Shown here one piece after another: positions 15,001 through 18,000 of a DNA stretch of 47,837 bases (its first letter is position 1; every line of letters starts with the position of its first letter). A program made the position numbers. The stretch comes from a virus (lineage: Duplodnaviria; Heunggongvirae; Uroviricota; Caudoviricetes), in the IMG/VR virus record IMGVR_UViG_2713896798_000007; one strand, written 5' to 3'.

Positions 15001-18000
15001 TTCAAACTTCTGCAACTCGGATTCGATTACTGGACTCCGGTCGGTGGGGCGATCACTCCTCGCGAGCGAAAACTGGTGTCCGGTTTCGTTGATTATCTGT
15101 GCGAATCAGTAGGCCGGGAACATACGCCAGCTCTGAGCGAAGCCGCAGAGCAATATCTGAATACAGTTGCGACACGCAGAACCCGAGATACAGCATTGCT
15201 AAAGTCGTTTGAGGCTTTCCGCGAGTGGGTAACCATTCAGGCAGGATTTTACACCGAGCATATTTATCCTGATGGTAGTCGTGGGCGCAGGGCAAAATCT
15301 ATCGCATTTGCGAACATGGACGAAACCGAGTTTCAGCAGGTTTATAAATCTGTACTGAATGTGCTGTGGAACTGGATCCTGTTCCGTAAATTTTCCTCTC
15401 CGGAGGAAGTCGAAAATGTGGCCGCGCAGCTGCTGGAGTTTGCGTAATGGTGGATTTACGTAAAGCGGCAAAAGGTCAGATGTGTACAGTCAGAATTCCT
15501 GGCTACTGCAATCACAATCCCGAAACGTCCGTGCTGGCGCATTACAGGCTGGCGGGGACGTGTGGAACAGCGACAAAACCACACGATATGCAGGCGGCAA
15601 TTGCCTGTAGCTCATGCCACGATTTAATCGACGGGCGGGTAAAAACCAGCGATTACACCAAAGAAGAATTGCGCCTGATGCATGCAGAAGGTGTTTTTCG
15701 CACACAAGAAATCTGGAGAAAGGAAGGTTATTTATGATTTACCCAACAAATACAGGCAAAAGCGGGGAACGCCTTCGTCTCACCACGCTGGAAAGTGTCT
15801 GGATTCAGGGAAAACTGCGCATGTGGGGGCGCTGGTCGTATATTGGCGGCGGTAAGACGGGAAATATGTTCAACCAGTTGCTGACCTCTAAAAAGCTGAC
15901 AAAAACGGCAATTAACGAGGCGCTCCGGAGGATGAAAAAAGCAGGTTTGGACAAACCTGAACTTGAGGCTTTTTTGCGGGATATGATCAACGGCAAGCAA
16001 AAAAGCTGGCTGGTGCATTGTACTGATGCAGAGGCGTTATGCATTGATCGGGTGATTAGTGAAGTGCTGGCAGAACACCCAGGATTGATTTGTATCCTCC
16101 GGCAACGATATGAAGGGAGGGGGATGACTAAGCGAAAAATGGCTGAATTGCTGAATGATTCACACCCTGAGTGGTGTTTTCGGACGTGCTGCAGTCGGGT
16201 AGATGTATGGCTAAATCTTGCTGAATATATGCTCTATCTACCGATGCGTGATGCATTCTCTTCCGGGGATCTAAAAACCGTCTGTTGACTCAATCTGTTA
16301 TCCGGGGCTATATTCCTCACGCGCCAGCAAAATCTGGCGTCGGGATTGGAACCCCGGATAGAGACCGCGACAGACACACGCCGCGAGCGTGTTTTTTATT
16401 GTCGTATGCACGCGCACATCTGAATTATGGTGGGGCGCATGGGGGAGCTGAAAAGCTCGCCGGTCGGTTTCCCGGTAGTTCCAACCCTGTGCGTCTCACC
16501 ACCCGATGATTGGAACCTGATGGTGGTGATAGTTTAGAAACCACCAGAGGGCGTCATTATGACAACTCAAATTTCTGTTGAAACTCTCTCCCCGATCACC
16601 CATAACCGGATTCCTGTTATTACCACCGAACTTTTGGCGCAGCTTTACGGCACTGAGCCGGTGCGTATTCGCCAGAATCATCATGAGAACAAAGTACGCT
16701 TCGTTGAAGGGAAACACTTTTTCAAAGTTGTTGGTAATGACCTTAAAGAATTGCGGGTAGCTTTAAACTACTCACAAAATCCCATCTCTCCCAAAGCCCG
16801 CTCCCTTATCCTCTGGACAGAACGCGGAGCAGCCCGCCACGCAAAAATGCTCGAAACCGATCAGGCGTGGGATGTGTTCGAAAAACTGGAAGACTGCTAT
16901 TTCAGTCAAAAGGATCCGTCAGCGCCAGTTGCATGCCAGAAAAGTTACGACACGCGAGTTCTCTGTTATCAGTGAGGTGGTGTCACTGTTTCCACAATTC
17001 AGTTACGGGATGATGATATTGTTATTTCCCTTGAGTCATGGCTGGAACTGGCGAGAGCCAATGGTTGGTTTGTTGTTCGCAGAGATAAACTGGTGGAAAG
17101 GTTGATGCAGCTTTAAAAAAGTTCTTGCATTTTTGCACATAAACTGCTTCAATTCCGGTACGCTTCGCAAAGCTGTATCGCGAGGCGAACCAAGCGCATG
17201 AACTTTACCAGAACCCGCCATTGAGCGGGTTTTTTATTGCGGAATTAATTACGGACCGTTATTATTCTGCTCCCGGCCCTTTAGCTCAGTGGTGAGAGCG
17301 AGCGACGCATAATCGCCAGGTCGCTGGTTCGAATCCAGTACAACGCGCCACACTTATTTTCCCTGGCTCGCTTTTGCGGGCCTTTTTTTTAAATGTCTCA
17401 CAATTCAGGCGGTTGACTGTTGTCTGGTTTGCGGGGAGTTTGTTAAAAGAAACTGGCATGGTGAATCCCCCTGTGCGGAGGGGCAATCAGCAACCAGGTA
17501 TATGTGATAATCGCGGATTCAGGTGCTGATACTGAATTCACCGGGAGGCACCCGGCACCATGCAAGAAAAAGAATGTGCATGCAAACATGCCCCTCTCCG
17601 GAGGGGCATTTTTTATGGGTAAAAAATGCCCGAATGGGTTCGGGCAATAGCATGAGATACTGATATTGTTGTGTTGTTATCGTGTGGATTTTAACCAGGG
17701 TTTATCAGGCTGCGCAACTGCGTGGCCTTTTTTCATTTCTTGGGCTGTAGTCCCCGTGTGTCATTCAGGCTTCCGGACTACAGCCCACTCCATATCTGAT
17801 TTAATACACTATCCCGGCCGGGAGGAATAATGACATTTAAACATTATGATGTTGTCAGGGCGGCGTCGCCGTCAGACCTTGCGGATGCGCTTGCTCAAAA
17901 AATTCGTGAAGGATGGCAGCCATACGGCGGGCCGTTTTCTTCGTATACGGATGATGGCGCAGCACTTATTCAGGCGATTGTCGCAGAAGGTGATGTGAGC

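Follow-up and report, generated by a model that had tools for sequence, protein, structure and literature searches.

The IMG/VR virus record IMGVR_UViG_2713896798_000007 is a stretch of 47,837 nucleotides, referred to here as the window, and represents a Rac-like lambdoid prophage. It carries an ORF6N-type antirepressor gene whose open reading frame (ORF) is interrupted by a premature TGA codon (Table 1). The frame opens with the ATG at 16559 and, beyond the TGA, continues for 46 sense codons (GGVTVSTIQLRDDDIVISLESWLELARANGWFVVRRDKLVERLMQL) up to a TAA at 17114-17116, a continuation which the initial annotation had reported and which is directly visible in the sequence. The family assignment made in that annotation is well founded, as residues 12-97 of the product match the Pfam ORF6N profile (PF10543) over its positions 3-86 of 86, scoring 72.8 bits where the cut-off is 27.8. 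It had also been stated that no start codon follows the stop, which holds in practice: in-frame GTG, TTG or ATG codons, as read from the sequence, are confined to the final 8 codons, and no ORF of at least 30 amino acids (aa) in the same frame 3' of the TGA is present in the ORF list. Re-initiation past the stop was ruled out, there being no in-frame start before those last 8 codons. The openness of the 46 codons has no significance by itself; the chance of such a stop-free run in random sequence is about 11% by our own arithmetic, (61/64)^46. It is homology that lifts the tail above chance, as it corresponds to positions 143-187 of the 187-position PHROG 2379 'anti-repressor' profile (E=3.2e-13).

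Homologues of the joined product numbered 4,771 among 5.8 billion proteins, and the best 120 of these range from 168 to 237 aa with a mode of exactly 185 aa. The commonest length is thus that of the two pieces of the window gene joined, and none of the best 120 terminates at residue 138. Uninterrupted homologues run to thousands across E. coli, Shigella, E. albertii and Salmonella; at 100% coverage, identity of the joined product is 96-97% to its nearest 185-aa relatives in E. coli and 91-92% to Salmonella proteins, and the PHROG 2379 profile is colinear with the 185-aa form from end to end. When 18 intact proteins from these four groups are aligned, the mutated column holds R or Q in every one, and the majority of the tail columns are invariant across genera.

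The two intact E. coli alleles compared codon by codon, the closest ones read, are those of FDAARGOS_944 (WP_001343833.1, 185 aa, 97.8% DNA identity with 12 of 558 nucleotides (nt) different) and 95JB1 (WP_000211416.1, 193 aa, in the same place as the window gene). In both DNA alignments the TGA of the window faces AGA (Arg) at codon 139, and the 46 residues that follow are the same as in the window, with one synonymous difference (GGC versus GGT) and no non-synonymous ones. Between E. coli and Salmonella, the tail has a proportion of synonymous differences (pS) of 0.24-0.27 and a proportion of non-synonymous differences (pN) of 0.057, which indicates that it is under purifying selection in the intact lineages and is a real coding region. 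Since intact homologues read through this position as AGA or CAA, and none of the best 120 ends at residue 138, the TGA is one A-to-T nonsense substitution (AGA to TGA) at codon 139 of a conserved 185-codon gene. A different lesion is seen in P0122, an 81-aa protein from other assemblies that corresponds to 16872-17116 of the window, in which a +1 frame (MCSKNWKTAISV...) runs into the final 30 residues of the tail, implying that another lineage acquired a frameshift in this gene independently. Searching the Protein Data Bank by sequence gave zero matches at E<=1. An AlphaFold2 model of the 185-aa form (mean predicted local distance difference test 44, predicted template modelling score 0.38, shallow alignment of 17 sequences) was too poor and was left unused.

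The DNA upstream of the gene holds a set of RNA elements and a short upstream ORF (uORF), preceded by a DUF1133 gene whose match to Phage_antitermQ is barely over the cut-off (26.9 versus 26 bits). The promoter-like site ends 7 nt 5' of the isrK start given by Rfam, a spacing at which transcription would begin at the isrK 5' end. Two AUGs lie in frame in the uORF, at nt 107 and 119 counted from that 5' end, and these are the positions of the 'first' and 'second' AUG of orf45 that were mutated in the study of the Gifsy-1 prophage (PMC4825925). The C4 element is likewise found in the corresponding Salmonella and 95JB1 loci, and the DNA of the uORF region is almost identical in the window and in the Salmonella locus.

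Table 1. Features of the antirepressor locus and of the rest of the window (positions in the window; sRNA, small RNA).
Feature	Position	Strand	Remarks
Truncated anrP-like ORF6N gene	16559..16975	+	138 codons and premature TGA
Nonsense codon TGA	16973..16975	+	Closest intact alleles AGA (Arg); Salmonella CAA (Gln)
Stranded 46 codons and original TAA, rest of conserved C-terminal module	16976..17116	+	
DUF1133/Q-like antiterminator gene (AntQ counterpart)	15734..16288	+	Pfam DUF1133 E=1.2e-105; directly upstream of the locus
Sigma-70-like promoter TTGACT-18-TATATT, putative PisrK	16285..16314	+	Consensus match only, 10/12
IsrK sRNA	16321-16397	+	Rfam isrK 77.5 bits, gathering score 50
isrK terminator-like site	stem 16376-16392 and T-run	+	
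c4-a1b1 element	16308-16360	+	Overlaps isrK; Rfam 50.1 bits, gathering score 46.7
C4-antisense-RNA-like element	16423..16506	+	Overlaps short upstream ORF; Rfam C4 71 bits, gathering score 45
Short upstream ORF, Gifsy-1 orf45 counterpart	16427..16537	+	36 codons and TAG
ralR toxin gene	1734-1928	-	In-frame TGA 1857-1859 (..VKDIS*YYRAK..)
Second isrK/C4 leader and Rha-family antirepressor gene	6349-7197	-	isrK 7070-7146, C4 6958-7045
Degenerate tRNA	17280-17350	+	PGAP (Prokaryotic Genome Annotation Pipeline) tRNA-Met; ARAGORN nothing; Rfam model positions 7-64, 37 bits
STnc100 sRNA	17427-17620	+	Rfam
AgvB, anti-GcvB sRNA	17621-17682	-	Rfam
IS66-family element	about 20251-22949	+	ORFs 20304-20981, 20981-21328, 21348-22919

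This arrangement is like that of the AnrP locus of Gifsy-1 (Hershko-Shalev et al. 2016, PMC4825925), with a DUF1133 antQ gene, isrK and its terminator, a uORF and a 185-codon ORF6N gene, where the published order is antQ (SL2579), isrK, orf45 and anrP (SL2578). As the order in the window matches that account, the window gene is read as the counterpart of anrP and appears to be its E. coli equivalent. The Salmonella locus used for comparison encodes the 185-aa homologue P0023 in the order DUF1367, 64-aa ORF, YbcO, DUF1133, isrK, C4, ORF6N and isrI, and is 97% identical to the window at the DNA level over 836 aligned columns, its protein falling within the Salmonella identity range given above. 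Differences exist as well. The uORF has 36 codons in both the window and this Salmonella locus, as opposed to the 45 codons described for Gifsy-1, where the stop of orf45 overlaps the anrP start (AUGA); Rfam identifies isrI, not isrJ, downstream in the Salmonella locus, and the window has neither. In the window and the Salmonella locus alike, the uORF ends 21 nt before the anrP ATG, and this ATG shares its frame with the uORF. The intact E. coli genes of FDAARGOS_944 and 95JB1 occupy the same position behind DUF1367-DUF1364-DUF1133, although they are followed by complete tRNA genes where the window has a degenerate one. By location, after antQ, isrK and a short uORF, the window gene is thus placed as AnrP-type genes are, but unlike Gifsy-1 AnrP it has no uninterrupted full frame, the TGA at codon 139 leaving just 138 aa encoded. 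Judged by its sequence, the window copy would be a pseudogene allele of the AnrP-type family and not a functional member.

The isrK-orf45-anrP system has been shown experimentally in Gifsy-1 (PMC4825925). There, a promoter drives IsrK, and read-through of the terminator gives an isrK-orf45-anrP mRNA which is translationally silent until IsrK, acting in trans, opens it, so that orf45 is translated and, coupled to it, anrP. AnrP raises transcription of the antQ operon and its expression induces the prophage, the authors proposing that it counteracts the prophage repressor (PMC4825925). The window retains every one of the upstream RNA elements as well as the short ORF, with hardly any difference from the Salmonella locus, and has a prophage repressor gene at 8159-8623 (minus strand). 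Ribosomes that reach the gene would be expected to halt after residue 138, giving a truncated product which keeps the ORF6N domain but would lose most of a C-terminal module (about aa 129-185), while the 46 codons past the stop would be left as an untranslated remnant of that module. The antirepressor activity is probably lost from such a protein. Taken together, it is concluded with high confidence that the E. coli counterpart of anrP, the Gifsy-1 antirepressor gene, is present here as a nonsense allele, which arose by ordinary pseudogenisation of an accessory regulator.

The C-terminal module itself comprises some 55 residues, with the TGA falling about ten residues in. Residues 129-179 of the joined product match phrog_340, a family of 85 positions, and the tail alone does so at E=3e-4. 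A phmmer search of 1.8 billion representative proteins found the module behind a Rha N-terminal domain in P0123, at 60% identity, and also in the short proteins P0125 (64 aa) and P0127 (102 aa), which are hardly more than the module. The mutated position is Arg in P0123, P0124, P0125 and P0127, within the motif LCYKR-x-G. The window also has a Rha-type gene (6349-6900, minus strand) that is a hit to phrog_340 as well as to the C-terminal portion of PHROG 2379. Direct comparison of the ORF6N protein with this Rha-type protein by BLASTP is marginal (E=0.079), and the shared module rests on the PHROG profiles and the phmmer search. On this basis the module is a discrete unit common to ORF6N-type and Rha-type antirepressors encoded behind IsrK/C4 RNAs, and the stop lies within it rather than at a domain boundary. 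That another antirepressor gene follows an isrK/C4 leader in this prophage and carries the module too offers a possible reason why loss of the ORF6N copy is tolerated, as the two may be redundant. The leader ORF of this second gene is continuous in frame with the Rha gene, and a 282-aa PGAP call spans both RNA genes; the true start of the Rha gene is likely the ATG giving MTTIPTL, at about 6900.

Comparable regulatory layouts are found elsewhere. By the same logic, an antisense or structured RNA in the immI region of P1 controls whether a leader ORF is translated, and translation of the antirepressor is coupled to that of the leader. The window is like the P1/P7 region (c4 - icd - ant) in layout only, in that a short ORF and an antirepressor gene follow Rfam C4 and c4-a1b1 elements, but here the host is a lambdoid prophage and the effector is an ORF6N protein; moreover, the RNA of Gifsy-1 activates (PMC4825925), in contrast to the repression in P1/P7 immI. 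Closer in sequence are Ant and AntA of Shiga toxin (Stx) phages (VT2-Sakai ant and phage 2851 antA), which share the isrK/C4 leader and the first ~120 codons (ORF6N) at ~92% DNA identity. Their C-terminal halves are unrelated, the proteins being 244 aa long with a different C-terminal domain, and Stx-phage Ant and AntA are therefore mosaic relatives only and not the same gene. A literature search on Stx-phage antirepressors returned nothing specific to the TGA allele. The sole isolated phage record with at least 80% of the isrK-anrP locus is that of Actinobacillus phage vB_Apl-pPE4 (15568-16424, 81% identity), whose host, Actinobacillus pleuropneumoniae, is unexpected for this enterobacterial module.

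Within E. coli, the C-terminal segment is present in 128 of 5,426 complete genomes, and 30 have the exact TGA haplotype. The 558 bp of the gene are identical in 27 of these 30 carriers and differ by one base in the other three; this base change is synonymous (codon 46) in one genome and gives Ala165Glu in the remaining two. The carriers include several serotypes of Shiga toxin-producing E. coli (STEC), among them O121:H19, O157:H7, O45:H2, O103:H2 and O111:H8, and the exact 138-aa product is recorded on 156 public contigs. The allele is real and is inherited as a single near-clonal haplotype. Ala165Glu results from a C-to-A change at 17052 in SJ7 (USA) and OkiPb01684 (Japan), and is the sole change seen 3' of the stop among carriers; it replaces a residue that is invariant in the intact proteins, which suggests, as a small sign, relaxed constraint. 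The O157:H7 and O111:H8 loci differ from the window at one site over 16000-17490 but share only ~97% identity with it on either side, and near-identity amid such flanks points to a block of ~1.5 kb that travels by recombination between prophage backgrounds. In the eight carrier records inspected, RefSeq/PGAP calls the gene a pseudogene every time ('ORF6N domain-containing protein, incomplete, missing C-terminus'). Together with the AGA and CAA codons of the intact homologues, this supports pseudogenisation of an accessory regulator, one of the two causes suggested in the initial annotation.

Several points weigh against such an account. P0023 is equated with SL2578/AnrP by gene order and RNA elements, with no accession match. 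The ORF6N domain is complete in the 138-aa product. The allele has also lasted and passed from one prophage background to another, which could reflect selection and not drift, and the tail is almost undecayed, a state that would fit early decay as well as continued low-level use. The truncation could accordingly be a functional variant under selection, with either a 138-aa ORF6N-only protein or the loss of AnrP activity stabilising lysogeny where a strain has many lambdoid prophages, a benefit owing to which recombination might have carried the haplotype from prophage to prophage. The near-identical haplotype in 30 complete genomes, covering several serotypes and two phylogroup backgrounds and set in flanks that differ by 2-3%, would be consistent with this, as would the complete ORF6N domain and the intact upstream regulatory RNAs. 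It is nevertheless considered unlikely, because lambdoid prophages routinely exchange short mosaic blocks without any need for selection, and because the stop falls inside a conserved module; in addition, one carrier lineage already has a radical replacement in the tail (Ala165Glu), and the separate frameshift in P0122 suggests that the gene is simply dispensable. A more specific proposal is that of a 'disarmed' antirepressor, in which losing the module while keeping the IsrK RNA and ORF6N lowers spontaneous or cross-prophage induction where many lambdoid prophages are present in a strain and has been selected for this reason; the product might act as a competitor of intact paralogues, or rare UGA read-through might set a very low dose. 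Were this true, the benefit would explain the identical 1.5-kb block in diverged prophages of O157:H7, O111:H8, O121 and other STEC, but it too is considered unlikely.

The other cause suggested in the initial annotation, stop-codon suppression, is unsupported. Suppression or programmed read-through of the UGA, through near-cognate tRNA-Trp, a suppressor tRNA or selenocysteine, would yield a small, regulated amount of full-length protein. Of the stop codons, TGA is the one most prone to read-through in E. coli, both in-frame stops in the window (in the ORF6N gene and in ralR) are TGA, and most carriers still have a fully intact tail. However, homologues have Arg or Gln at codon 139, never UGA or Cys, with R also in the distant carriers of the module, and the UGA is restricted to one clonal haplotype. 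ARAGORN predicts 0 tRNAs in the window and the lone Rfam tRNA match is partial, so that no functional or suppressor tRNA gene was found there by either method; the Rfam scan of the window likewise gave no recoding element above thresholds. No fold resembling a selenocysteine insertion sequence was seen, the 68 nt from the UGA folding no better than shuffles (z = 0.32). The selenocysteine, suppressor-tRNA and read-through readings were rejected on the homologue residues, the tRNA scans and the fold test, and such recoding is regarded as highly improbable; ordinary background read-through of the UGA is possible, yet nothing points to a programmed event. An error of sequencing or assembly is more remote still and can practically be dismissed, as the change is a substitution and not a homopolymer indel, and the same TGA recurs on 156 contigs and in 30 complete genomes that come from several countries and were sequenced independently. 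A nonsense allele of the anrP counterpart is thus the reading preferred here.

The initial annotation had spoken of a possibly ageing prophage and had counted the ORF6N gene as the second in the window with an in-frame stop. The other is probably ralR, which the nearest public record labels 'internal stop', and beside which the RalA antitoxin RNA (Rfam, 1557-1735) is intact. That nonsense codon, an IS66-family insertion and the degenerate tRNA all agree with ageing, but the large terminase, portal, capsid, tape-measure and J genes are ORFs of expected size; 'ageing' is therefore a reasonable description, yet the prophage is not heavily decayed. The IS66-family element lies in the late operon, with a DUF826 gene on one side and the holin gene on the other; the nearest relative lacks it, and an 8-bp overlap in its flanks suggests a target-site duplication. 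In the degenerate tRNA, the 3' acceptor strand, examined by eye, is unpaired with the 5' end, and related prophages have Ile/Arg/Arg or Ile/Arg/Thr/Gly tRNA genes at this site. Between the tRNA remnant and an esterase-like gene (17830-19776) lie STnc100 and AgvB, an sRNA cluster typical of STEC prophages. The nearest public relative of the window is SCPM-O-B-9504, with 99.9% identity over 89% of a 24-kb segment, and no complete genome in the collection covers the window fully. Strain 13E0780 matches the window at 100% over 861 bp and is a different genome, and the frameshifted terminase and capsid genes annotated in it are not attributable to the window.

What is described here is a nonsense allele of an experimentally characterised type of regulator, and one that is already known in the sense that reference annotation has already flagged it. 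Its value is mostly one of annotation: the 46-codon continuation is to be understood as the remnant of the C-terminus of a known protein, for which a pseudogene call, as made by RefSeq, is proper. As the stop lies within a module common to ORF6N-type and Rha-type antirepressors, this natural allele could act as a ready-made truncation mutant for asking what role the module plays, and it would also be a handy marker for following exchange of the 1.5-kb regulatory block among STEC prophages.

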